A stretch of 64,000 nt of DNA from Escherichia coli (GTDB lineage Bacteria > Pseudomonadota > Gammaproteobacteria > Enterobacterales > Enterobacteriaceae): assembly GCF_013315695.1 (NCBI RefSeq), contig NZ_CP054353.1; one strand, written 5' to 3'. Shown here one piece after another: positions 1 through 12,220 of the stretch. The notes below the pieces were generated by a model, which saw only the letters and a list, made by a program, of their open reading frames with translations, was not told the DNA's origin and searched no databases. The position numbers and the translations under genes were made by a program. The stretch's first letter is position 1, and each line of letters begins with the position of its first letter.

Positions 1-11
1 GAATCCCCCCG

Positions 12-1067
12 TTAACCAATTTTGACGGTAACAAATTTGCGAATATCTGCCGGAACCGGCTGCGGTGCGCTGTGCGTCTGCACGTACTCAATCGCCGGAT
101 CGCCGTCCTCAATCCAGTTTTTCGGGTAAAACATGTTTTGCGTTGCGCCCGTTCTTACCGCTTCCTGTTCCAGGATCGCACCATAGGCCACCAGCCCTTT
201 ATTGTTGGTGTTGCCCAGGACCAGCAAATCAGGCTCAAGGAAATATTTTTCTGTGCCGTCGCTGTCAGTGTATTTGCCGGAATAGACGATAAGGGCCAGA
301 TCACCAAGATAGCCTTTAAAGCTCACCACTTCGCCCAGGTTTTTACATGCCAGCTCTGCGGCGGATTCTGAACCACGGGAGAGATCGTACAGTTCACGGA
401 ATTTTTTAAAGCTGCGTAACATGCGCCATACATCAACGCCCATAATCATGACGTTTGCGGGGCAACCTGCCTGATCTGCGTATAGCTCAATGTCATAGAT
501 TGGGTCGTGTATGTCTTTGTCCTGCTCTGACCATTTTTTACCGTCGGCCTGCTCTATGATGTTTTTTTCCGGTATCTTCCAGTCGATTTCATAGCGCTCT
601 ATGCCTTCGCCCTCAATGATGTTTTTTCCGGTCGTTACCGCATTTACCGCCAGCCATTCCACGCGCGCTTTAATGGCGTTTATCTGGCGGCGCATGTTGC
701 CAGTAATCAGGCGCATACGGCGGTAGGTAGGGTCGTTAAGCTGTGCTGGATCTTCTCCAGCCATGCGCATTATTGTTTTTAATGGATCGATTTCGTGTTT
801 TGGCTTCATGTAGCCAGGGCGAATAATGCTTGTTTCGTACCCTTTATCGCGCTGAACCTGGCTACCCACCATAGGCGAACAAAACGCCGACATAGTGACT
901 TCTTCAATATCCAGGTTATCTAACATGATGTCCTGTGTGTTGAATGTCGCCACGTTCGGGAAAAACAGCGCGGTAAACAGCGGACTGAATTTAAATTCCG
1001 CAATATCCTCGCGATTCAGGTACGCAAAAAGCTGGTTAGTGTTAAGTGCTATTGCTTTTACTGTCAT
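12..1067 (-). CDS. Major capsid protein, lambda gpE family
   Basis: 351-aa ORF; translation shares many conserved blocks with lambda E as I recall it (GY.KPKHE, DP.YRR.R, RSFK, RGS.SE, VYSG.Y, VLGNT, YPKNW..GDPA, QSAP). Start overlaps stop of upstream gene (TAATG); GGGGGTGA RBS. Confidence 0.8.
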   Translation of the reverse strand: MTVKAIALNTNQLFAYLNREDIAEFKFSPLFTALFFPNVATFNTQDIMLDNLDIEEVTMSAFCSPMVGSQVQRDKGYETSIIRPGYMKPKHEIDPLKTIMRMAGEDPAQLNDPTYRRMRLITGNMRRQINAIKARVEWLAVNAVTTGKNIIEGEGIERYEIDWKIPEKNIIEQADGKKWSEQDKDIHDPIYDIELYADQAGCPANVMIMGVDVWRMLRSFKKFRELYDLSRGSESAAELACKNLGEVVSFKGYLGDLALIVYSGKYTDSDGTEKYFLEPDLLVLGNTNNKGLVAYGAILEQEAVRTGATQNMFYPKNWIEDGDPAIEYVQTHSAPQPVPADIRKFVTVKIG

Positions 1068-1273
1068 TATTCACCCCCGTGAACCTGATTCATACCCAGC
1101 GCCGCGCGTAAATAGGCGCGTACCTGCCAGCCTGTTGACGGCTCAACCATCGCCAGCGGATCAAGTCCTGCCGCAATGCCTGCTTTTACGTTCTGCTGGT
1201 GGCGTTCCTTGAGCGCCTTCACGATGTCGGGGCTTATGTACACCGAAACACCGCCTTTTTTCTCTTCAGCCAT
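1067..1273 (-). CDS. Hypothetical small protein (68 aa), first gene of capsid operon
   Basis: ORF with AAGAGGA RBS ~10 nt upstream; translationally coupled to capsid gene; no recognisable family. Confidence 0.45.
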   Translation of the reverse strand: MAEEKKGGVSVYISPDIVKALKERHQQNVKAGIAAGLDPLAMVEPSTGWQVRAYLRAALGMNQVHGGE

Positions 1274-1304
1274 AGTAAGAAATTCCTCTTTGACTTAAAA
1301 AATC

Positions 1305-1358
1305 ATAACTGGATGTTCATCCAGTTATGATTATAATCATGATTGCATTTTGTGCAAT
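1305..1358 (-). promoter_or_regulatory. Promoter/operator of capsid operon: three adjacent palindromes overlapping sigma70-like -35/-10
   Basis: Perfect 24-bp palindrome ATAACTGGATG-TT-CATCCAGTTAT (1305-1328); 14-bp palindrome ATGATTATAATCAT (1327-1340) containing TATAAT on minus strand; ATTGCA-N5-TGCAAT (1342-1358) containing TTGCAC -35 at 16-bp spacing. Confidence 0.5.
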
Positions 1359-1436
1359 GATATTGAGTTGCGTTGCAAATTATGAAATTATTATCCCGAT
1401 CATGTGTGTCAGTGCACCAAAAAACCTCATATGCAA

Positions 1437-1510
1437 AAGCCCGATAAGCCACCTCTGACCTTATCGGGCTTTTTTTGGGCGCAAAAAAGCCGGATTGCTC
1501 CGGCTGTGTG
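1437..1510 (-). terminator. Two tandem hairpin terminators downstream of PerC-like gene
   Basis: GCCCGATAAG...CTTATCGGGC hairpin flanked by A-run and T-run (bidirectional), then AGCCGG-attgct-CCGGCT hairpin followed by T-run on minus strand. Confidence 0.5.
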
Positions 1511-1527
1511 GTGTGGTTCTGGTATTC

Positions 1528-1776
1528 CTACTCTGCTAATTTGCTCAGCCCCATGTCTGCGTAAGTGCGATTTACTGCATTTCTCAGGTCTGCATAGTTC
1601 TCCGTTGGCGGCTCCGGTGGCCTCTGTGCCTTCCTGGAACATTCCAGCCGTCGCATCGTGATGTGATGCCGTTCCTTGTCTGTCTCCACCAGCATCATGA
1701 CTTCACCCCATCGCGCCGCCGCCCTCCGGTAAAATCCTTTCGCTTCGAGTTCTTCCGCTATGCGGTCATGTACCAT
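1528..1776 (-). CDS. PerC-like transcriptional regulator (82 aa)
   Basis: Start chosen at internal ATG with GAGGGGGTGA RBS 10 nt after SSB stop; motif AEELEAKGFYRRAAARW resembles the PerC/Pch family signature from memory; needs profile search. Confidence 0.45.
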   Translation of the reverse strand: MVHDRIAEELEAKGFYRRAAARWGEVMMLVETDKERHHITMRRLECSRKAQRPPEPPTENYADLRNAVNRTYADMGLSKLAE

Positions 1777-1786
1777 CGTCACCCCC

Positions 1787-2197
1787 TCAGAACGGAATAT
1801 CATCACCGTAAGGGTCATCGCCTCCCGCTGGTGGCTGATTACCCTGTGCGCCTGTGGTTTTGCGTCTGTTCCCGCCAGGACGTGCCGCACGGGCACTGAT
1901 TACGCTGTCTGCAATAACCTGATAACCCTGACGCGTCTCCCCGTTCTGTCCGGTCCACTGGCTTACCTGCATCGTGCCGGATACGCTGGCAACGTCGCCT
2001 TTTTGATGTTTAGCCAGGAAGTCGGCCTGCTTACCAAATGCGATGACCGATAGCCATAACGTCGCCTGTCCGTCCTGTGCCTGACTGCATGGCAGTGATA
2101 CCGCCATACGCGCCAGCGTCATCGGTGTGCCCTTGCTGGTCTGTTTTACCTGCGGGTCGTCCACCAGCCGACCGTAAGCCGCTATCTGTGCTGTCAT
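1787..2197 (-). CDS. ssb: Single-stranded DNA-binding protein (SSB)
   Basis: 136-aa ORF, Gly/Pro/Gln-rich C-terminal linker ending in acidic tip ...GDDIPF, the hallmark SSB C-terminus; GGAGAGGTGG RBS; ATGA overlap with upstream gene. Confidence 0.8.
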   Translation of the reverse strand: MTAQIAAYGRLVDDPQVKQTSKGTPMTLARMAVSLPCSQAQDGQATLWLSVIAFGKQADFLAKHQKGDVASVSGTMQVSQWTGQNGETRQGYQVIADSVISARAARPGGNRRKTTGAQGNQPPAGGDDPYGDDIPF

Positions 2198-2445
2198 GAT
2201 TCCACCTCTCCGGTTTTAACGTTGATGGTTGTTACCTGTTCCGCTTCGGCAATCTCCCGTTCTGTCAGCGTGGCAAAGTTTGCCGCCGCCGTGGTCATGA
2301 ATGCGCTTATCAGGTCGGGATGTTCCTTCGCGTATCCTTCCCGCGTGTGGCGGTCTATCGTTCTGATTGCCACCTTTAAGGTGTGCTCAGTCATGTCTAA
2401 CGCTTTATATTTTGGCTCTGTTCTGTCTCTGCGTGTTCTGGTCAT
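2194..2445 (-). CDS. Hypothetical protein (83 aa) between ori and ssb
   Basis: ORF with GAGGTGG RBS before ATG at 2445 (ORF track extends to TTG at 2457); coupled to ssb by ATGA overlap; no recognised family. Confidence 0.45.
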   Translation of the reverse strand: MTRTRRDRTEPKYKALDMTEHTLKVAIRTIDRHTREGYAKEHPDLISAFMTTAAANFATLTEREIAEAEQVTTINVKTGEVES

Positions 2446-2477
2446 TTGCCACCTCAATTTATATATATAGAAACATG

Positions 2478-2795
2478 TGCGGGTTATGCGGGTTATTGGG
2501 TTATCTTAGCGTGCTAACCATTTTTTATCCTTTTATATCAGTATTTTGCAAAACACCCTGTTTATTATTTGCCCACCACGTAACCCGCAAAACGCTCAAA
2601 ATAACCCGCAAACGGGGTTTTTTCTGCGGGTTACGCATGACTGTCCGGTGTTACTTCAGTTATTCGCCTGCGGGTTATAATCGTGCTTTTGCGGGTTATA
2701 AATGCCCTTTTGCGGGTTACGTGCGGGTTATTGGTTTCCTTTATATTCATGCACTTAATACACTTATACACAGGATAACCCGCATAACCCGCAAT
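2478..2795. repeat. Iteron array / replication origin of the island
   Basis: About 11 copies of the 9-mer GCGGGTTA(T/C) in both orientations with AT-rich spacers, including tandem pairs, directly downstream of the primase-helicase gene. Confidence 0.7.
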
Positions 2796-2815
2796 TTTTT
2801 TCCTCACACAGGGGA

Positions 2816-4939
2816 TTAATCTTCATCATCAGGCTGGAACATCAGCACGTAAAAAACATGCTGCTTACCCCCAATCTTGCCCAGCGCCTTTTTTTTGTAT
2901 CGGCGATCGCTTCCCTTCTCCAGCATTCCGGCAGCATCCAGGGCACGCGCAAAATGCGCCGGATTAAATCCCTTCGCTATCTCACTCTCAAACACGTGCG
3001 GGAACGTGTAATAGCGCATCTCGTCATCTTCGTTGCGAATGCTCCCTTTTCTGTATCCGGCAAGCTCTTTAATCGGTAAATCACGCTCATCTGTATTGGG
3101 GTACGGAAGGTAGCGGCTAAACCCAAACGACGACAAAAACGCCTCAGCCTGTTCAACCATCTGTTTAAATTCCCTGTTACCCGTGCCGAACTCCTTCACC
3201 CAGGCATTAAAGTTATGCTGTATCGCGTCGCGGCATTCCTGCACGACCCAGCCAGTTACATGACCGGAAAGCACAAGCGCGGCCTCCAGTATGGCGAAAC
3301 GTTCACCCACGCGGTGGACCTGCTCGCCGTAGCTCTCCGGTATCAGGTTGCGCCACCGTTCGCGGCATTCCCTTACCGTATCCTTTGCCTCCTGCTGGTG
3401 GCCTGCCAGCCATTTAACCCACTCACGACCCGCCGCCCCGTGATTTGCTGTCCAGGCATCCTTTAACGCGTCAGCATGTTCCTTACCGTTGCTGTATTCG
3501 TGAAATTTCGTGGCTTTTTCCATCGGAACGTTAAGCAGTCGGACAAGCTGCCCCGCCTTAACTTTTATCCCCTCACTTTTGAGGAATGTCTCAACGTCCA
3601 TTTCTCCGGTGCTGATTGCCACCGTTCGCCAGTGTTTGATCTCCCTGTTGCCGCCATCCTTCGCCCCCTGCAATTTCCCTGAACCGTTAAACAGCGTATA
3701 AGCAGACGTTGACACTTCCCGCGCATTTCCGGCCTGGCCTATCTCATCCAGTGGTAAAAGCCCGTCATTATGGGCCTCGGCCTCATTGGCAATACCTAAC
3801 GCCGTGCCGTACCAGGTCAGCCGCTGCGCGTCCGGCTCTCCCCATAAACTTGATGCGATGTTCTGCGTGGTGGTCTTACCTGCCGATGACTGTTCGAAAA
3901 GATGCACCCCGAAGCCGTCAGCACCCACAAGGCCAATTAAAGGCGCTGCCAGTGACGTTGCCACACCCAGCATCATTGAGGCATTACCGCCAGCCAGCCG
4001 CGCCACACTCTCGCGCCAGCCCTCCGCCGTACCCGCCACGGAATAACCGTTAATCGCGGCGCTTTTTCCGGTAAACAGGATCGGTTTTTCAGAATCACCA
4101 ATGATCGAACCGTCCGGCATGATGTACGCGCCAAAATGCCAGCCCGTTGTTGTGCTTAACTGCCATTCCTCATGGCTTCCGCTTAACTGCATCCAGTCCG
4201 CCAGGATTGCCCTGTATTTGCCGTTGGTTGTCACGTTCAGCCCGTGATCTTTAAGTAACCGCCAGCCGTCACGGTCGCCGATACCACCACACGGGATCGC
4301 CATTGTGATGACTTCATGATTTGCTAATTTTTTCCAGCGCATGACGCGGTAATGCTCTTTACCGATCGTCCCCGTTCCCAGTAGTTCAAGCGGAGAACAT
4401 AACCACGTCTCAGGCCGGATAATTTCGCCTGACTGCTTATCCACTTTGGGCGTTACCCAGAAAACACCATCGGCGCGACTTTCAACGCGTGGCTTTAATT
4501 CGTCATCGCTATGGCTTCCGGTATCTTTTTTCTTTACCGGAAACTCAATAACCAGACCATCAGAAAGATTCTGCCGCTCACGGGCCAGATATTCGCGCCA
4601 GTTCTCCACCTCCTGACCGTGCATTCCATCAGGGTAAAAATTTGCATCCTGTACGCCTGCCGCCGCCAGCTTCTGACCAATCGCCTTGATCATTACTGGC
4701 TCAAGATGTCCGGCCCTGAATATGCGTACTGATTTTCGGCCTTCCGGCACAATTTGCAGCTTATCCAGTTCGGCAAGTTGTTGCTCTCCAAGCCAGACAG
4801 GAGGCACGTTATCGCCAGCCAGTCGCCCGTCCTGTTCCTGCCACTGTTTCGCATGTGCCCAGGCATCACTACCCGCAAAAATGATGACTTCCGTCATTTT
4901 GTCACGTGGCTGGTGTTTTAAATTTGGCGCTTTTTTCAT
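2816..4939 (-). CDS. Primase-helicase (P4 alpha-like, D5/SF3-type)
   Basis: ~707-aa ORF; Walker A-like SSAGKTTT; size and position (next to iteron ori, downstream of int/alpA) typical of satellite replication proteins. Likely start ATG at 4939 with GGAGAG RBS, overlapping upstream stop (ATGA); ORF track extends to 4954. Confidence 0.75.
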   Translation of the reverse strand: MKKAPNLKHQPRDKMTEVIIFAGSDAWAHAKQWQEQDGRLAGDNVPPVWLGEQQLAELDKLQIVPEGRKSVRIFRAGHLEPVMIKAIGQKLAAAGVQDANFYPDGMHGQEVENWREYLARERQNLSDGLVIEFPVKKKDTGSHSDDELKPRVESRADGVFWVTPKVDKQSGEIIRPETWLCSPLELLGTGTIGKEHYRVMRWKKLANHEVITMAIPCGGIGDRDGWRLLKDHGLNVTTNGKYRAILADWMQLSGSHEEWQLSTTTGWHFGAYIMPDGSIIGDSEKPILFTGKSAAINGYSVAGTAEGWRESVARLAGGNASMMLGVATSLAAPLIGLVGADGFGVHLFEQSSAGKTTTQNIASSLWGEPDAQRLTWYGTALGIANEAEAHNDGLLPLDEIGQAGNAREVSTSAYTLFNGSGKLQGAKDGGNREIKHWRTVAISTGEMDVETFLKSEGIKVKAGQLVRLLNVPMEKATKFHEYSNGKEHADALKDAWTANHGAAGREWVKWLAGHQQEAKDTVRECRERWRNLIPESYGEQVHRVGERFAILEAALVLSGHVTGWVVQECRDAIQHNFNAWVKEFGTGNREFKQMVEQAEAFLSSFGFSRYLPYPNTDERDLPIKELAGYRKGSIRNEDDEMRYYTFPHVFESEIAKGFNPAHFARALDAAGMLEKGSDRRYKKKALGKIGGKQHVFYVLMFQPDDED

Positions 4940-5235
4940 TTCTGCTCTCTCCACGCGGCAATCATGTTTTTCAGTTCCTGTAGTTTTTTATCCACATCCA
5001 CACGTGACACATGGTTATTTCTGGAAGTCGGGATTTCCCGCCTGAATCTGCTAATAAAGATCTCCACGTTCAGCGAACTATGAAATGAATAGCCATCACG
5101 AATAAAATACACACGGTCAAACATCAGTTCTTTTACCGTTACTCTGTTGCCGTTCTTATCCAGATAAATAGCGCCGGGGATAATTTTGGGGTGTGCATAA
5201 CCGCTGGCAGTCAAGCCAGATAAATATGTTCTCAT
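4936..5235 (-). CDS. Hypothetical protein (99 aa), low-GC cargo
   Basis: ORF translationally coupled to primase gene (ATGA); local GC ~30-38% versus ~50% for neighbours; no recognised domain. Confidence 0.5.
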   Translation of the reverse strand: MRTYLSGLTASGYAHPKIIPGAIYLDKNGNRVTVKELMFDRVYFIRDGYSFHSSLNVEIFISRFRREIPTSRNNHVSRVDVDKKLQELKNMIAAWREQK

Positions 5236-5241
5236 GATTAT

Positions 5242-5562
5242 TTATCCCCGATTTGAATCAGTATTCGCTTTCTTTATAGCATTTAATGCATTTGTGGCAT
5301 TTTCAATGGTGCACCGTAACGAAATATCAAACTGCCCAAGCATTGCCAGTAACAAACCGATATTACCCATATCAATGCGCATGGCCTTTTCGTCATATTC
5401 CTCATTTTCTGACGCATACCACATCAGGCTACCAATTGACGCAATACCCATTGATATATTGTCAGTAGCCCCATCCGCAGCGGAATAAACTTTTTTAGCA
5501 ATATCATGCTCACAGTTAAAATGCGGATTAATCAGGTACTGGTAATTGGTCATGTCAGGCAT
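5242..5562 (-). CDS. Hypothetical protein (106 aa), low-GC cargo
   Basis: ORF starting ATGCCTGA-overlapped with upstream 67-aa gene; low GC; no recognised domain. Confidence 0.5.
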   Translation of the reverse strand: MPDMTNYQYLINPHFNCEHDIAKKVYSAADGATDNISMGIASIGSLMWYASENEEYDEKAMRIDMGNIGLLLAMLGQFDISLRCTIENATNALNAIKKANTDSNRG

Positions 5563-5758
5563 GGCACACCCCCTGACGAATACGGGCGGCGAATACCATC
5601 ACGCAGCCAGCCGGGGATTGCTGGCGTGCTTCCTGTTCGCTGCTGGCCTCAATGGTAATCACGCGCGGTTGTGCCGTGCTCAGGGCGATAAAACGCCAGA
5701 TGTATTTATTCAGGTTGTGCGAGTCCCGCCCTTGCGGGTGTGTGGTATGATTTAACAT
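5555..5758 (-). CDS. Small conserved satellite protein (67 aa), possibly Icd-like
   Basis: 3' portion of a long spurious ORF; ATG at 5758 preceded by GAGG; native-like GC; YIWRF...FAARIR pattern vaguely matches Icd-like annotations from memory (unverified). Confidence 0.4.
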   Translation of the reverse strand: MLNHTTHPQGRDSHNLNKYIWRFIALSTAQPRVITIEASSEQEARQQSPAGCVMVFAARIRQGVCHA

Positions 5759-5839
5759 AGCTACCTCGATACTGTTGCTATCGTTGGTTGTTAGACGCCC
5801 TGCATGTGTTGCGAGCACTGCGGGGCGTTGCTCTTTCAG

Positions 5840-5885
5840 GTGTATTTCACCTTTGCTTTTTAATTTACTCACTGGTGAAATACAC
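5840..5885. promoter_or_regulatory. Perfect 12-bp inverted repeat in divergent promoter region (candidate operator)
   Basis: GTGTATTTCACC (5840-5851) and GGTGAAATACAC (5874-5885) separated by a 22-nt loop, followed by T-rich tract; lies between divergently oriented 67-aa gene and RHH gene. Confidence 0.45.
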
Positions 5886-5951
5886 TTCAAGCCTTTTTTT
5901 ATCATTTTTTTTGCGTATACTGACATACACCAATTTTTAGGAGATCCAGAA

Positions 5952-6131
5952 ATGGCAACTGGTGCAAAGAACGCAAAATCACAAATGACAACTGTCAGAA
6001 TCCCACATGAAGTAATGGATGATATTGAGCAACTTAAAGAACCTGGCGAAAGTACCGCTGGTTTTTTAGTTACTGCCGCAAAAGGCGAGATCAAACGCCG
6101 CCAGCGCCGCAAGGCCAAAGAATCAGAATAA
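5952..6131 (+). CDS. Ribbon-helix-helix-like small DNA-binding protein (59 aa), candidate repressor
   Basis: ATG at 5952 preceded by AGGAGAT RBS; N-terminal region (TTVRIPHEVMDDIEQLK) has RHH/CopG-like character; basic C-terminal tail. Confidence 0.45.
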   Translation: MATGAKNAKSQMTTVRIPHEVMDDIEQLKEPGESTAGFLVTAAKGEIKRRQRRKAKESE

Positions 6132-6188
6132 TCACTATCAGCGCCGTGGCGTGAGGTACTCCGGCGCATTGCTTTACAGGTCAGTACT

Positions 6189-6398
6189 ATGAGCAAAAAA
6201 CACCGATCAGCAGATGAGATTTTTGCAGAACAACGAAGATTGCTTTTGCAAAGTATCATTTCACGCCAGCAAGAGAAGGCGCGAGCTAAACAAATGCCAC
6301 CAAATACAGAACCAGCGCCTACAAGATTTGCGCTTGATGATTTTCTCGATAAACACCCCAGGGTAATGAAAGCAAACAAAAACCGCCCACCAGCCTGA
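6189..6398 (+). CDS. Hypothetical protein (69 aa)
   Basis: ORF downstream of RHH gene on same strand, followed by a strong terminator; weak RBS; no recognised family. Confidence 0.35.
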   Translation: MSKKHRSADEIFAEQRRLLLQSIISRQQEKARAKQMPPNTEPAPTRFALDDFLDKHPRVMKANKNRPPA

Positions 6399-6441
6399 TA
6401 GCGGCTATCATCCCCGTGCTTATGTTTAGTGTTTCCAAACT

Positions 6442-6469
6442 GGCGACCTCCCAAGGTCGCCTTTTTTTT
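6442..6469 (+). terminator. Rho-independent terminator
   Basis: GGCGACCT-ccca-AGGTCGCC hairpin followed by T8. Confidence 0.65.
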
Positions 6470-6488
6470 ATGTGCCATTGTCACCACC

Positions 6489-6785
6489 TCAAGCGGCCTT
6501 GCCTGAATTAATGCGTTCGCGGTTTTTGACCCACGCCACAACCTCAGACTTAACCCAGCCAACAGAACGACCGCCGAGACTGATACGGGAGGGGAAGCGG
6601 CCCTGCTTTTCCATCTCGTAACGAGTTGTGCGGCAAACGCCTGTTAGCTCTCTGCATTCTTTTTCGCGGATTACGCGATCTTCATTTATTTCACGCATAC
6701 AAAAACCTACATAAAAATTACGTATATAAACTTTTCTCTTAGCTGTAGATATATGAGATCGGATATTACTTAGATTCTTTTTCAC
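6489..6785 (-). CDS. alpA: AlpA/Vis-family phage transcriptional regulator / excisionase-like
   Basis: C-terminal part matches AlpA-type HTH pattern (ECRELTGVCRTTRYEMEKQGRFP...GGRSVGWVKSEVVAWV). Start uncertain: GTG at 6785 or ATG at 6698. Confidence 0.6.
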   Translation of the reverse strand: MKKNLSNIRSHISTAKRKVYIRNFYVGFCMREINEDRVIREKECRELTGVCRTTRYEMEKQGRFPSRISLGGRSVGWVKSEVVAWVKNRERINSGKAA

Positions 6786-7107
6786 CTCTTAAATTAAAAA
6801 CACAACCATGCTAAAGGCTTTGTTCGCTAAGGTTCGTAGAAGCTCGTTAGTGTTTAAAATCGTGTCACGAGTTTTTAAGCGACGCAACAAAAAATGTCGT
6901 TATTTGGCATGACACCTGAATTACCTCATTAAAAACAAATAGATAAACCATCAGGTGTTGGAACAATCAAGAAACAGAGAATAAGAACTAAGAAGAAGAC
7001 ATTTCAAATTTTTTCAATACTTGACACATATAAATCGTCGATATTTGCCGATATTCGACGATTTATTTTAGAGGGCCATTTTTCGCAAGAAAAACAGCCG
7101 TAATTTG

Positions 7108-8346
7108 TCAAGAATTTTGGGAGTAAATTCGCGGGGTCATAACAACGATTTTTTCATCATTGTTCTGGAGAAGCTCGAGACGCTCAACCCATAGATTAAG
7201 AGCGTCACGTTTTGCATCGAGATAACGGGAGTGATTATAGACTCGTTGCATTCCTGGCAACTGGTGCGCGGTTAGCTGCTCCACTACATGAGGATCCACG
7301 CCTAAATCGTTCAGCATCGTTGTAAACGTGTGCCGGATGTCGTGCAACGTCCAGGGGGCTTGATTAATGCGTCTGTGTGCCGTTCTTCCGTACTCTGATA
7401 CAGATGATTGCCCTTTCAGTTCTCCGAGTAATAAGCCCGTGTGTCGGTTCTGCTCCACCAGCTTCGTTACGAACGGCAAGATCGCTTCCGGTATTGGCCT
7501 GAATATTGCTACCTTCGTTTTGCTGTGTTCTTTCGGCACAGTCCAGAGCATTTCTTTAAAATCCCATTCCTGGACCTCAGAGCGTCTTAGCTCAGTGGTA
7601 CGGCATCCGAAGACAATCAGGAGGCGAATCAGGGCGCTGTAGTACGGTGTGTAAATTTTTTCATCCAGGGCGCGTAGTAATTCCCCAAGCTCCTTGTTTG
7701 TTAGTACGCGCTCGCTTATTTCTGCTTTTTTCCCAACATCACCTACAACCATATCATCTAGAACGTTGGTAATTGCGTAGCGTCGTTTGCGGCAGTACTT
7801 AAGCGCCTGCTTGCATACCTGTAACAAAAATCCTGCTGATACCGGATTACGCATAGCAAGCTGATCAAAACAGGTCAGCCAGTGGCGTAGCTCGCATTTT
7901 TCCAGCGGCATAGCACCAATATGGCTGATTATGTGTGTATTGATCCGGCTTTTCAGAGATTCGTAATCTGTGCGCTTTTCCTTCGCGTACGATTCAAGCC
8001 AGTAAGTGAGCGCTTCCTTAACCGTAACAGGTGATAACGCTTCCTGTACGGTGTGATTAAGCTCATGGCGTGGATTTTTACCCTCAGCAAGCCAGGCGCG
8101 ACACTGCGACGCTTTTTCCCTGGCTGCTTTCAGGCTCAAATCTGGATAATTTCCCAGCCTCAGACGTTCAGGGGCTACCTTCCTGCCTGTTCCGGCCCTG
8201 TAAGTGAAATACCAGGTTAACAGGCCATTGGTTGAATGCCTTACGCTAAGGTTGCCACCATCATTAAAAAAGGTGTTTTTTGTGGTTGGTGATCCGCTTA
8301 ATTTTCGTAAAAGAGTGTCGCTAAGTCTATGAATTGCCCTGCTCAT
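7108..8346 (-). CDS. int: Tyrosine-type site-specific integrase
   Basis: 412-aa ORF; C-terminal catalytic region with HDIRHT and ...VYNHSRY (R-H-R-Y family pattern); located at island edge next to host gene. Confidence 0.85.
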   Translation of the reverse strand: MSRAIHRLSDTLLRKLSGSPTTKNTFFNDGGNLSVRHSTNGLLTWYFTYRAGTGRKVAPERLRLGNYPDLSLKAAREKASQCRAWLAEGKNPRHELNHTVQEALSPVTVKEALTYWLESYAKEKRTDYESLKSRINTHIISHIGAMPLEKCELRHWLTCFDQLAMRNPVSAGFLLQVCKQALKYCRKRRYAITNVLDDMVVGDVGKKAEISERVLTNKELGELLRALDEKIYTPYYSALIRLLIVFGCRTTELRRSEVQEWDFKEMLWTVPKEHSKTKVAIFRPIPEAILPFVTKLVEQNRHTGLLLGELKGQSSVSEYGRTAHRRINQAPWTLHDIRHTFTTMLNDLGVDPHVVEQLTAHQLPGMQRVYNHSRYLDAKRDALNLWVERLELLQNNDEKIVVMTPRIYSQNS

Positions 8347-8401
8347 GTTTCGAATTTCCGGTCATCAAAATTAACTACACCATTGACTACACCGAGCATC
8401 G

Positions 8402-8434
8402 TACAAGGGCGAACTGTGACGAACAAGGGCGAAC
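8402..8434. repeat. Direct repeats (ACAAGGGCGAAC x2) in int-proximal attachment region
   Basis: Two copies of a 12-mer 8 bp apart, plus CGAACAC repeats nearby, between int start and cspD; candidate integrase arm-type sites. Confidence 0.3.
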
Positions 8435-8750
8435 AAGAAAAACGAAATTATCCTTTATAATCATAGAAATAAATGAGATACCTACACCATGACGAACACC
8501 CACGAACACTAACTGATAAATAACTATCATCTATCGTTGGCATCAGCGACATCTGTCACATTCCTGTCAATAGCGTTAACTGCTTCAAATTTTTGATTCA
8601 TACCTGCCCCCTGGCCCCTGTCAAATGCTTGACGGCTCGCCCTAATTCTCTAAATTGTATTTCTAGAGTTGGCGAGGTTTTGAACAGCCCCCTCTCTGAC
8701 CCCGGTTTATTCCATCTTACTTGTATAAGATTTGCGAAGGATGTCGAAGC

Positions 8751-8975
8751 ATGGAAAAGGGTACTGTTAAGTGGTTCAACAATGCCAAAGGGTTTGGTTT
8801 CATCTGCCCTGAAGGCGGCGGCGAAGATATTTTCGCTCATTATTCCACCATTCAGATGGATGGTTACAGAACGCTAAAAGCTGGACAATCCGTTCAGTTT
8901 GATGTCCACCAGGGGCCAAAAGGCAATCACGCCAGTGTTATTGTGCCCGTCGAAGTAGAAGCGGCAGTCGCATAG
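8751..8975 (+). CDS. cspD: Stationary-phase cold-shock-domain protein CspD
   Basis: 74-aa translation MEKGTVKWFNNAKGFGFI... recognised as CspD; ORF track begins upstream at an earlier in-frame ATG. Confidence 0.9.
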   Translation: MEKGTVKWFNNAKGFGFICPEGGGEDIFAHYSTIQMDGYRTLKAGQSVQFDVHQGPKGNHASVIVPVEVEAAVA

Positions 8976-9010
8976 CTCTTCTGTCTCATTGTGTACATCC
9001 TAAAGGCAAA

Positions 9011-9040
9011 ATGCCAGCCCGATCGGCTGGCATTTTTATC
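9011..9040. terminator. Bidirectional rho-independent terminator (cspD / macB convergent)
   Basis: ATGCCAGCC-loop-GGCTGGCAT hairpin flanked by A-run and T-run. Confidence 0.6.
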
Positions 9041-9047
9041 TCAAAAA

Positions 9048-10994
9048 TTACTCTCGTGCCAGAGCATCTACTGGATCCAGTCGTGCCGCATTTCGTGCGG
9101 GTAACCAGCCAAATAAAATCCCGGTGACCGTCGAGCAGAGAAATGCCAGCAGCAGCGCCAACGGTGAAAAACCGATCTCCCAGCCGGGTAAGAAAAGCTG
9201 CAAGGTGAAAGCAATTAACAGTGACAGTGTTATTCCCAACGCGCCACCGACCAGGCAAACCAGTACGGCTTCGATCAGGAACTGTTGCAAAACATCACTT
9301 GCTCGCGCACCTACAGCCATGCGAATGCCAATTTCCCGCGTCCGCTCGGTCACTGACACCAGCATAATATTCATTACACCAATACCGCCCACCACCAGCG
9401 AAATCACCGCCACCAGCGTCAGAAACAGTTGTAAAGTACGTGTGGTCTTTTCAACGGTTTTCAAGACGCCGTCCATGTTCCAGGTAAAGAAATCCTTCTT
9501 ACCGTGGCGCAGTGAAAGTAAACGCGTGAGTTGCTGTTCCGCCTCGGCGCTGTCAAATCCTTCTTTCACCCTGACAGTAATGGAGTTCAGCCACGACTGG
9601 CCCATAACTCGCCCGGACATCGTGCTGTAAGGTAGCCAGACACGCAGCACTTTACTGCTACCAAACATCGACTGTTTTTCTTCCGCCACACCAATGACTC
9701 TGGCGGGCATATTGCCGACCAGAATTACCTCACCAACCACATCTGCTTTATGGGGGAAAAGCTGGCGGCGAGTATTACTGTCGAGAACCACGACCTGCGC
9801 ACGACCGTTCAGCTGCTCCTGATTAAAGGTGTTCCCTTCACTGAAGGTCATGCCATAGACATTAAAATAATCGCCGCTCACGCCATTGGCACTGGCAGCC
9901 ACATCAACATTGTTATAACGCAGGTGCAGGTTTTGCGAGACGGCAGGTGTGGCTGAGGCGACCCACGGTTGTTTTTGGATGGCGATTAAGTCATCGTACT
10001 TCAGCGCCTGCTGATATTGCGGATCGTCATCGCCAAAATCTTTCCCGGGATAGACATCAATAGTATTCGTACCAATAGAACGAATATCCGCCAGCACCAT
10101 TTGTTTGGCGGCGTCGCCCACCACGACAATGGAAACCACCGACGCAATACCGATAATAATCCCCAGCATGGTCAGTAAAGTACGCATTTTATTCGCTGCC
10201 AGCGCCCGCCATGCCATCGTCAGCGCTTCGTTAAAACCGCTGACAAATTGCCGCCAGCCAGAGGCCGTGTTGACAACAGGTTCCGTCCCGCCAGCAACAT
10301 TCACTTTTTCAATGGCGGGAGGATTGCGCACAATTTCACCGTCACGAATTTCGATCACCCGCTCGGCCTGAGCAGCGACCTGCGGATCGTGGGTAACGAT
10401 AATCACCGTATGCCCGCGATCGCGCAGCTGATGCAGGATCGCCATCACCTCTTCGCCAGAATGGCTGTCCAGTGCGCCGGTTGGTTCATCGGCAAGAATT
10501 ACCTGACCGCCGTTCATCAATGCCCGCGCGATGCTGACACGCTGTTGCTGACCACCCGAAAGCTGTGCCGGATAATACTCTGTACGGTCTTCCAGCCCCA
10601 GTCGTTGCAGCAACTCCTGGGCGCGAAGCAGCCGCTGTTTCCGCTCAAGACCAGCATAGACAGCGGGTACTTCAACGTTCTGCTCGGCGGTTAAATGCGA
10701 AAGCAAATGGTAACGCTGGAAAATAAAGCCGAAATGCTCGCGGCGCAGTTGCGCCAGCGCATCGGCGTCCAGCGTGGCAACATCCTGACCGGCGACGCGA
10801 TAGGTGCCGCTGGTGGCCTTATCCAGGCAGCCGAGAATATTCATCAGGGTCGATTTACCGGAACCCGAAGCGCCAACAATCGCTACCATCTCACCGGCAT
10901 AAATATCGAGGCTGATGCCCTTCAGCACCTCAACCTGCTCATCACCGGCAGGATAGCTGCGACGAATATCCTTTAATTCGAGCAAGGGCGTCAT
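9048..10994 (-). CDS. macB: Macrolide export ABC transporter ATP-binding/permease MacB
   Basis: 648-aa ORF with N-terminal ABC ATPase motifs and C-terminal FtsX-like permease; recognised as MacB. Confidence 0.9.
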
Positions 10995-12106
10995 TGTGCA
11001 GCTCCTGGTTTGTCCTCACCAATCACCACTTCATCGCCCGCTTCCAGCCCTTTGACAATCTCAACATCGGTATCGTTACGTGCGCCAATCGTCACTTCAC
11101 GCTCCCGTGTTTCACCATTACGCAACAATTTGACTTTATAACGATTATCGCCAACCGGATCGCCTAACGCCGACAGAGGGATCGTCAGCACATTTTTCAC
11201 ATCGGTGAGCTGAATATGCACTTGCGCGGTCATATCCAGCCGCAGCAAACCATTGGGGTTGGGTACTTCAAAACGGGCGTAATAGAAAATAGCGTCGTTA
11301 ACCTTTTCCGGCGTCGGTAGCACATCCTTGATTTGCCCCTCGTAGCGCGTCAGTGGATCGCCAAGCACCGTAAACCAGGCTTTTTGCCCCGGCTTCAGGT
11401 GGATTACATCCGCTTCAGAAACCTGCGCTTTTACCAGCATGGTGCTCATATCTGCCAGCGTCAGAATGTTCGGTGCTTGTTGTGCGGCAATCACCGTCTG
11501 GCCTTGCAGAGTGGTGATTTGCGTGACTTCCCCGGCCATCGGAGCAACGATGCGGGTGTAATCGAGATTGGTTTTAGCCGTATCGAGAGAGGCCTGATTG
11601 CGCTTGATTTGCGCGTCAATGGTGCCAATTTGCGCCTGTTTCACAGCCATCTCCGTCGCGGCGGTATCGAGATCCTGCTGTGAAACCGCTTGCGTTTGTG
11701 CAAGACGTTGCTGACGGGAATACGTCACCCGCGCCAGTTTCAGCTCCGCTTCCGCCTGCTGCCGCTGCGCGCGTAGCTCCATCAGCGTTGCTTCCACCTC
11801 CTTAATCTGGTTTTCAGCCTGTTCAGGATCAATAACCCCTAAAAGCTGGTCTTTTTTTACTTTATCGCCAATCGCCACCGACAGCGTTTTCAACTGACCG
11901 CTGACCTGCGCGCCCACGTCAACCTTACGCAGCGCGTCCAGCTTTCCGGTCGCCAGCACGCTTTGCTGTAAATCACCGGGGCGCACAATCAGCGTCTGAT
12001 AAGTCGGCTCGGGTGCGTTAAGAATTCTCCATAACGTAATCAGTCCGGCGATGACTATCACCAGCGCAATAACGTAACGCTTCTTCACGGTTTTCCGCTT
12101 TTTCAT
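10991..12106 (-). CDS. macA: Macrolide export periplasmic adaptor MacA
   Basis: Membrane-fusion-protein family; ATGA overlap with macB; start set at MKKRKTVKK. Confidence 0.9.
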
Positions 12107-12220
12107 AAATATTCTGAATACTCCATATGCCAATCCGGGTCATTAACTTCAACGAAATATCAACAAAACCCTAAAATTTACGTTAGTAATCACACTATTG
12201 ATGTTTGGTTAAGATACGCA

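Follow-up and report, generated by a model that had tools for sequence, protein, structure and literature searches.

We analyzed a 64,000-nucleotide (nt) stretch of the Escherichia coli contig NZ_CP054353.1 (assembly GCF_013315695.1), referred to here as the window, with attention to a 67-amino-acid (aa) open reading frame (ORF) on its minus strand. This icd-like ORF is truly protein-coding and belongs to the Icd/Kil family; it heads the early/replication operon of a satellite of the capsid-forming phage-inducible chromosomal island (PICI) type. The original prediction had described a 67-aa ORF with its own ribosome-binding site, lying in the 3' end of a long reading frame at the head of a replication operon, and all of these features were read in the window (Table 1). 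The ORF starts 5 nt after a Shine-Dalgarno (SD) sequence GAGG, forms the 3' end of a listed 335-aa ORF (5555 to 6562), and is followed by orf106, a DUF4222 gene and a DUF927 primase/helicase gene. Its translation from the window is MLNHTTHPQGRDSHNLNKYIWRFIALSTAQPRVITIEASSEQEARQQSPAGCVMVFAARIRQGVCHA. Almost every one of the 91 unique leaders compared had a GAGG or GGAG just 5' of the ATG, and the GC content of the ORF was 57.4% vs 40-45% in the neighboring island genes. No second Icd-like domain was found in the window.

The identity of the protein was established by profile search. It scored 69.5 bits (E 1.8e-19) on the NCBIfam profile NF033153 (phage_ICD_like, "host cell division inhibitor Icd-like"), matching positions 1-48 of a profile of 48 positions with a curated cutoff of 25 bits, which is far beyond chance. 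The authentic P1 Icd (taken from NC_005856) and the 65-aa P4 Kil matched the full profile with 52.6 and 76.1 bits, respectively. Residues 18-60 of the window protein aligned by BLASTP with residues 11-50 of P1 Icd at 35% identity over 43 aa (pairwise E 2e-6). One 100%-identical protein and 172 close relatives were present at NCBI, all named Icd-like, and the RefSeq/PGAP name for the homologous gene is 'host cell division inhibitor Icd-like protein'. An Icd-like assignment, offered tentatively in the original prediction together with a BLASTP or profile search by which to check it, was borne out by these homologs in RefSeq and NF033153, and the protein itself is already known, as a named family with an identical sequence in NCBI. 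No Pfam family matched the 67-aa protein. A tblastn search of the window protein against 50,697 phage records matched vB_KppS-Ant alone and missed P1, indicating that the link to P1 Icd needs profile methods. Of 5426 complete E. coli genomes, 1499 by megablast and 1959 by blastn carried related DNA, which is about a third.

P4 Kil corresponds to the last 65 codons of an ORF given in the P4 RefSeq record as 'cI gene product (AA 1-137), transcriptional repressor' (NC_001609, 8168-8584). We take this 65-codon peptide to be Kil, a cell-killing product encoded by the terminal part of the longer gene eta. The source for P4 kil/eta is said to be Forti et al. 1999 (J Bacteriol 181:5225). According to the summary in PMC10111431, P4 Kil kills cells, eta is coupled to the alpA homolog and its translation from the upstream promoter prevents premature termination, and the P4 immunity factor is the CI RNA, not a protein. 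Rfam models placed the C4-family RNA of P4 (= CI) at 8507-8420 and an isrK-like element at 8692-8615. The window protein also matched two PHROGs, phrog_6196 and phrog_1743 (E 5.6e-45 and 9.3e-24), which are labelled transcriptional repressor; the label probably descends from the superseded protein annotation of P4 cI, and we rejected the repressor reading as a legacy of it. An explicit equivalence of P4 Kil, P1 Icd and the PICI copies appears to be undescribed in the sources searched. The Kil homology ties PICIs to the P1 immI and P4 PLE/PLL circuits and to a defined FtsZ-binding core.

The coding sequence evolves as that of a real but fast-changing protein, with pairwise ratios of nonsynonymous to synonymous substitution (dN/dS) of 0.19-0.5 in informative pairs of diverged copies. 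In a 35-sequence family alignment F23, E41, A44 and R45 were invariant, while R22, A38, E43 and R59 were nearly so. AlphaFold2, run on the alignment, returned disorder for residues 1-17 and a core with a predicted local distance difference test score of 86-89, comprising strands at 19-26, 32-38 and 53-61 and a helix at 41-46 (beta-beta-alpha-beta). The stretch of P1 Icd matched by NF033153 is residues 12-51, the FtsZ-binding core. P1 Icd blocks formation of the Z-ring and binds FtsZ in two-hybrid and pull-down assays, and residues 12-51 suffice for FtsZ binding and filamentation (PMC11897509). The topology of three strands and one helix agrees with that reported for Icd 12-51 (PMC11897509), both being predictions. 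By pairwise alignment R22, E41 and R59 of the window protein correspond to P1 R15, E32 and R49, which an AlphaFold3 model puts at the FtsZ interface as a prediction only (PMC11897509). Searches for solved-structure relatives gave nothing significant by sequence or by fold. By homology, the structured core (residues ~19-61) would act like P1 Icd 12-51, binding FtsZ and arresting host division.

Coupling to the next gene is the most conserved feature of the Icd/Kil family outside the protein. In the window the icd-like stop overlaps the start of orf106 by 8 nt (ATGCCTGA), and a G-rich SD for orf106 (AGGGGG) lies inside the last icd-like codons. We compared 170 loci, comprising the window, P1, P4, E. 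coli genomes and IMG/VR contigs, which had been found with three family members. Among 169 scorable loci the Icd/Kil stop overlapped the next start in 165 (8 nt in 115 loci, 11 nt in 40, 4 nt in 10), P1 icd-ant1 and P4 kil-epsilon among them. A G-rich SD lay within the last Icd/Kil codons, and the genes that follow (ant1 in P1, epsilon in P4, orf106 in the window) are unrelated to each other. The original prediction had the ORF coupled to downstream cargo genes; the coupling stood, and the genes coupled are those of a replication module, not cargo. With the stop lying over the next start, the downstream genes would be translated only if the icd-like gene is translated. The P1 record (NC_005856) describes icd as 'apparently required for expression of ant', and PMC10111431 reports that translation of P4 kil/eta is needed for downstream expression. 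Judged from this anatomy and from P1 and P4, the icd-like gene would be a translational gate of the operon.

In P1 and P4 an RNA is encoded upstream of the gene. No Rfam match to the C4/CI RNA (RF01695) or to isrK / c4-a1b1 was found in the window at the gathering threshold, nor at E<=10 in 5300-7200, while the positive controls P4, L005 (an Ash-type E. coli locus) and L133 were all detected, and a C4/CI or isrK RNA upstream as in P1/P4 was rejected. By sequence profile, only 4 of the 165 family loci had a C4-like RNA upstream, in each case with its end 51-56 nt ahead of the ATG. The 91 unique leaders came from the C4-less loci; each combined a long hairpin rich in GC and a small one at the SD with a conserved linker (mRNA side UCUAACCACCAAC). 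Several measures assign this structure to the opposite strand. The antisense strand of the window had a minimum free energy of -34.4 kcal/mol (z -4.41) vs -24.3 for the mRNA strand, and antisense folded more stably in 91 of 91 leaders (mean -28.5 vs -21.0 kcal/mol). Across 16 consensus pairs in 55 sequences, 97.3% of pairs were canonical on the antisense strand, including 81 G.U, vs 88.0% with 0 G.U on the mRNA strand. Shuffled alignments gave 81.7% (0 of 500 shuffles reached the observed value) and slid registers ~40%, and RNAalifold reported compensatory changes in 13 of the 16 pairs. The wobble asymmetry of 81:0 is a stronger argument than folding. On the antisense strand the 9 nt after the big hairpin contain 5.6 U on average (vs ~1 T on the sense side), and this U-tract marks an intrinsic terminator there; a sense-strand intrinsic terminator was rejected because the mRNA strand has no U-tract. 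A candidate extended -10 for the antisense transcript lies ~80 nt upstream, within the icd-like codons; all window-type unique sequences have it 4 nt ahead of the CAT, and the variants TATAAT, TATAGT and TATTAT keep the consensus.

From covariation and strand-specific structure we predict a cis-antisense RNA of ~80 nt covering the start codon, the SD and the 5' untranslated region of the icd-like gene. A covariance model built from the 55 sequences gave a single hit in the window and a single hit per locus elsewhere, in every case on the antisense strand at the start codon, and it had no match in P1, P4 or L133; no second copy of the motif was found in the window. No Rfam family matches, no report of an antisense RNA in PICIs was found in the literature searched, and the element appears to be undescribed in the sources searched. 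One locus was a mosaic carrying both types of control element in one island: in L005 (E. coli STEC307) the antisense motif (3000-3082) lies at the start of an Ash-type ORF with isrK-like (3188-3264) and C4 (3286-3373) RNAs inside it, and the kil/icd-like gene (3428-3619) comes next. A promoter-like site, TTAGCA-16-TAAAAT, was also observed on the plus strand of the window within orf106 (5495-5522, 9/12 matches); it may be chance, or a longer antisense RNA could start from it and stop at the same terminator.

Upstream of the icd-like ATG the same reading frame is open back to an ATG in an SD context, TGAGGTGGTGACAATG, directly after alpA. The 240 codons at 5759-6478 contained 0 stops in frame 0 vs 18 and 17 in the other frames, and the 108 codons free of overlap with plus-strand genes contained 0 vs 13 and 9. 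Eighty IMG/VR loci fell into 50 upstream sequence classes, in which the alleles of the YlcI/YnfO-family gene on the opposite strand were 38-98% identical to that of the window; the frame was open for at least 150 codons in 40 of these classes, with a median of 268 codons. The family-wide median was 265 codons, with at least 150 in 123 of 159 loci. Summed over 35 classes from the alpA stop to the icd start, frame 0 held 130 stops vs 588 and 626, and the frame typically opens with a strong SD and ATG (TAAAGGGGAGCATATG or TAGGGGGAGCATATG) right after the alpA stop. The long frame had been called spurious in the original prediction; the absence of stops in 240 codons and the openness across 159 loci refute this, and a chance ORF was rejected on the same counts. 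In the L074 lineage, where ~35 codons are open (NRZ appears to be of the same class), a 401-codon frame in another phase runs from just after alpA to 20 nt before the icd ATG, suggesting that a continuous translated run is kept and the fusion is not. This takeover was examined in the L074 lineage only.

We also examined the long frame as a protein. No Pfam domain, Phage_ASH (PF10554) included, was detected in the 335-aa frame of the window, while P4 eta scored 82 bits. A search of 1.84 billion proteins gave 589 hits, and in the best 144 representatives at 50% identity the Icd/Kil domain ended at most 3 aa from the C-terminus in 132, with 122 longer than 120 aa. Seven of 10 long representatives had no Pfam domain and three had Phage_ASH, like P4 eta. 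Similarity among the long forms was explained by the YlcI gene and a terminator on the other strand, and in the overlap region dN/dS was 0.11-0.36 for YlcI vs 0.26-0.67 for the long frame. An N-terminal motif 'MxxKTKAA..GR' (M..K(T/K)KA..GR) was rejected as protein conservation, since it is the translated hairpin of the plus-strand terminator and is present in unrelated long forms. A conserved protein or Ash homolog was not supported. The simplest reading is that selection acts on the openness of the frame and not on its sequence, as would suit a translation track like P4 eta. An eta-like open frame as a general feature of islands that lack Ash and C4 appears to be undescribed in the sources searched and, if true, would illustrate selection that maintains an open frame and not a particular protein sequence. 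Some long representatives, including P0124 and P0126, contained two tandem Icd/Kil-like stretches ('...HPKFIYTFLAVHRD...' then '...FIWRFIALSTAQ...'), each of which was matched separately in the search of representatives. In vB_KppS-Ant (L003, LR881103) the deposited 324-aa 'hypothetical protein' (8182-9156) is the long frame plus the Icd-like domain, and a YlcI/YnfO homolog on the opposite strand (8586-8789) is unannotated. Annotation corrections are enabled for start calls of 67-118 aa, for this 324-aa protein and for the PHROG 'transcriptional repressor' label.

A candidate internal promoter for a short transcript was located within the long frame. A -35 of TTGACG, TTGACA or TTGAAG was present at -128 to -149 from the ATG in 82 of the 91 unique upstream regions. 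A palindrome pair surrounds the -10 in the window as a candidate operator, and other loci carried allele-specific palindromes at the same place, each paired with one YlcI/YnfO allele; the palindrome GTGTGTTTCATG goes with the YlcI beta-strand allele 'LTTVRVPLDVM' in 12 of 12 loci. The YlcI/YnfO-family gene of the window, which is divergent and faces the icd-like gene, is ribbon-helix-helix-like ('TVRIPHEVMDDIEQL'). This suggests that YlcI/YnfO and the palindromes form an immunity-type repressor/operator pair, a pairing that linkage alone could also explain.

The arrangement was compared with known systems. The P1 immI operon (c4-icd-ant) shares the family, with a core matching region 12-51, and in both cases the gene is the first small ORF of its operon, its stop lies over the next start, and an RNA covering the ribosome-binding site controls translation (a predicted one in the window). 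P1 differs in having a trans-acting C4 RNA, processed from the same transcript and ending 51 nt before the icd ATG, where the window lacks C4 and shows a predicted cis-antisense RNA; downstream lie ant in P1 and the replication genes in the window. P1 Icd also has a 22-aa C-terminal tail and 11 open codons upstream, in contrast to the long upstream frame of the window. As in P4, the small ORF is the end of a long ORF that begins next to an alpA/vis homolog, contains an internal promoter (a candidate in the window), overlaps the next gene by 8 nt and lies upstream of a primase operon. Unlike the window frame, P4 eta has a Phage_ASH domain and encodes isrK-like and C4-family (CI) RNAs, while the window frame is antisense to the YlcI/YnfO gene and faces a different RNA element. 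In P22 sar-ant and in SymR/SymE a short structured antisense RNA with an intrinsic terminator lies opposite the ribosome-binding site of a small, potentially toxic or regulatory gene. The window RNA differs in being predicted, in having no sequence or Rfam relation to these, and in having its target inside a long open frame. The regulatory arrangement differs in form from the P1/P4 scheme; the protein is ordinary, and it is the wiring that would matter.

The best explanation, which we hold to be probable with some reserve, is that the Icd/Kil gene encodes an FtsZ-directed inhibitor and serves as a translational gate that is shut by the antisense RNA and bypassed through the long frame. In the uninduced state transcripts from the weak internal promoter would carry the short ORF, and the ~80-nt antisense RNA from the promoter in codons 3-6 would pair with the SD and AUG and keep the gate shut, taking the role held by the C4/CI RNA in P1 and P4. 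Repression of the internal promoter by the divergent YlcI/YnfO protein, acting at the flanking palindromes, may add to this block. With the leader silenced, the replication operon would go untranslated and be subject to polarity, its RNA exposed to Rho. Upon induction by a helper, transcripts from the alpA promoter would be translated without a gap through alpA, the 307-codon frame ending as the Icd/Kil domain, orf106, DUF4222 and the primase. As with P4 eta, such translation could make expression insensitive to both the RNA block and Rho, and division would be arrested when the island is switched on. We extend this more tentatively, as possible rather than probable, to most PICI and capsid-forming PICI satellites of Enterobacteria: here the C4/CI RNA would be replaced by an ~80-nt antisense RNA and a YlcI/YnfO repressor with allele-specific operators, the open alpA-coupled frame would be the helper-induced bypass, and together they would switch the element between a quiescent and a replicating state. 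Current descriptions put Gram-negative PICIs under alpA control alone. If the antisense RNA and the eta-like track are real, about one in three complete E. coli genomes would carry this replication switch.

Several observations weigh against this explanation. The RNA is a prediction from covariation and strand-specific structure; G/U-rich strands fold better in general, and the sequences behind the wobble asymmetry are phylogenetically related. The antisense promoter has no recognizable -35, was missed by a simple two-hexamer scan and is unclear in the KppS-Ant-type subfamily. The window copy of the internal promoter is weak (8/12 matches) and was likewise not flagged by the two-hexamer scan. 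In some islands, including EDL933, E2348/69 and NRZ, the frame is closed 26-35 codons upstream, and the residues of the long frame are less constrained than those of YlcI and may be translated noise or untranslated. Rho dependence is assumed by analogy alone. For the protein, identity to P1 Icd over the core is only 35%, the predicted FtsZ contact Y24 is not conserved, and the evidence for division inhibition comes from P1 Icd and, as killing, from P4 Kil, with the PICI copies resting on homology.

The long frame might be an antisense 'shadow' of YlcI/YnfO and orf69 that is never translated, leaving the short ORF as the sole product. Such a shadow would account for long-form similarity that traces to conserved genes and a terminator on the other strand, for the stronger constraint on YlcI, for the 7 of 10 long representatives with no Pfam domain and for the islands with no long frame. 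It does not fit with 0 stops vs 13 and 9 in the codons free of plus-strand genes, with 130 stops vs 588 and 626 across 35 classes, with the strong SD and ATG that recur right after the alpA stop, or with the other-phase frame that ends 20 nt before the icd ATG where the phase differs; together with the experimental precedent of P4 eta (PMC10111431), these make a shadow unlikely, although we take it seriously. A related doubt is whether any antisense RNA is made, the hairpins acting instead on the sense mRNA (stability, processing or a protein site) or as DNA. The fold of the sense leader is likewise more stable than that of shuffled sequences (z -2.9 to -3.5), the SD lies next to or inside the small hairpin, and the antisense promoter has no -35. 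On the antisense strand, however, all 81 wobbles are G.U pairs, each of which would turn into a C.A mismatch on the mRNA, the U-tract follows the big hairpin on the antisense strand only, and antisense free energy is the lower in every leader, so that we regard a sense-strand or DNA role as rather unlikely.

The remaining alternatives grant less to the gate or to the peptide. A small toxic protein family opposite a predicted short structured antisense RNA over the ribosome-binding site resembles a type I toxin-antitoxin module, a layout of toxin gene and antisense RNA seen in SymE/SymR, in which case the pair would stabilize the island or abort infection and not gate replication. Such a module seems improbable to us: the icd-like gene always opens the replication operon and is translationally coupled to it, RNA control serves immunity in P1 and P4, and the protein is not a membrane peptide, while the RNA is predicted only and toxicity is inferred from homologs. 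Conversely, the peptide might be inactive and the ORF a pure leader whose translation itself matters for the replication genes. The stop-start overlap is kept whatever gene follows, the last codons encode the next SD, the antisense promoter lies in the codons of the first 17 residues, which are disordered, and translation of P1 icd and P4 kil/eta is needed downstream (the P1 record note; PMC10111431). We give a pure leader little credence, since the core is under purifying selection, nearly invariant residues are common to P1, P4 and PICI copies, a compact fold is confidently predicted by AlphaFold2 and the P1 Icd core is active on FtsZ. A transcriptional repressor, as the two PHROG matches are labelled, is highly improbable: besides the probable origin of the label in the superseded RefSeq entry for a P4 cI protein, the window protein has no DNA-binding domain (no Pfam match) and no structural match.

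The island that carries the gated operon occupies positions 1-8346 of the window (~8.3 kb) and runs off its edge. An int gene, alpA and a DUF927 primase-replication module followed by the element's own capsid gene were observed in one orientation, which is the synteny of a capsid-forming PICI; the protease, portal and terminase genes fall beyond the window. AlpA is the helper-induced master activator in Gram-negative PICIs (PMC11773190; 10.1101/2022.09.08.507074), and capsid-forming PICIs are induced through alpA by a helper phage and packaged in their own small capsids (10.1101/2022.09.08.507074). No psu, delta or sid was found among the ORFs of the visible part, where the capsid gene and this synteny led us to reject a P4-like satellite. 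The P4-like prophage setting of the original prediction was correct as to the family, which includes P4 Kil, and not as to the element. The closest layout was that of the prototype capsid-forming PICI, EcCIEDL933 (locus L007), which has int, alpA, a variable zone, an Icd-like gene, small ORFs, DUF4222, DUF927, SSB, PerC and the major capsid gene, with the antisense motif also at the icd-like start. It differs from the window island in that the latter is integrated at another site, next to cspD, and in that the EcCIEDL933 variable zone is a 247-aa ORF, whereas that of the window is YlcI/YnfO and orf69 on the opposite strand. The PICI papers covered by the literature search make no mention of the Icd-like gene.

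Table 1. Features of the icd-like locus and its island in the window (nt positions of the 64,000-nt stretch).
Feature	Position	Strand	Basis or remark
icd-like ORF, 67 aa, short form with own start	5758-5555	-	ATG 5758-5756, TGA 5557-5555; sequence read and NF033153
Shine-Dalgarno GAGG of icd-like ORF	5767-5764	-	5 nt ahead of ATG; read from sequence
ATGCCTGA junction, icd-like stop over orf106 start	5562-5555	-	orf106 ATG 5562-5560; 8-nt overlap; read from sequence
Predicted cis-antisense RNA, ~80 nt, covering ATG, SD and 5' untranslated region	~5757-5837	+	Covariation, strand asymmetry, terminator, -10
Parts of predicted antisense RNA: anti-SD CCUC (5764-5767), hairpin (5767-5783), linker GUUGGUUGUUAG	5764-5783 and linker	+	Window sequence
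Terminator hairpin (5795-5828) and U-tract (5829-5837) of predicted antisense RNA	5795-5837	+	Window sequence
Candidate extended -10 TGgTATGAT for antisense RNA	5743-5751	+	In codons 3-6 of icd-like ORF; conserved TGnTAT(G/A/T)(A/G)T
Long open frame, 307 codons, putative eta-like 'translation track'	6478-5555	-	ATG 11 nt after alpA stop to icd-like stop
Candidate internal sigma-70 promoter for short transcript	5890-5862	-	-35 TTGAAG 5890-5885, 17-nt spacer, -10 TAAATT 5867-5862
Palindrome pair GTGTATTTCACC / GGTGAAATACAC around internal -10, candidate operator	5835-5890		Third copy 5921-5931
YlcI/YnfO-family gene, 59 aa, ribbon-helix-helix-like	5952-6131	+	NF041551, 64 bits; antisense to long frame
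orf69	6189-6398	+	Listed ORF
Intrinsic terminator of YlcI/orf69 unit	6442-6469	+	Just past alpA stop; complement (6478-6440, -) encodes 'KKKATLGGR' start of long frame
alpA (PICI master activator family)	6785-6489	-	PF05930, 58 bits; directly upstream of long frame
int	8346-7108	-	ORF and profile matches
orf106, 106 aa, phrog_15327, function unassigned	5562-5242	-	Coupled to icd-like gene
DUF4222 gene	5235-4936	-	Downstream of orf106
DUF927 primase/helicase gene	4954-2816	-	Downstream of DUF4222
phrog_1231 ORF, SSB, PerC	Between DUF927 gene and major head gene	-	In this order after DUF927 gene
Major head protein gene	1067-12	-	At window edge

Additional observations were made at the integrase end of the island. 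The Rfam int-alpA RNA motif RF02996 was detected in the gap between int and alpA in L006, L094, L126, L168 and L169, and not in the window. No tRNA gene was found anywhere in the window. The integrase end abuts cspD, macB and macA (window 8347-12133), and in a related island of the O157 strain Z1814 the integrase lies next to yljB.

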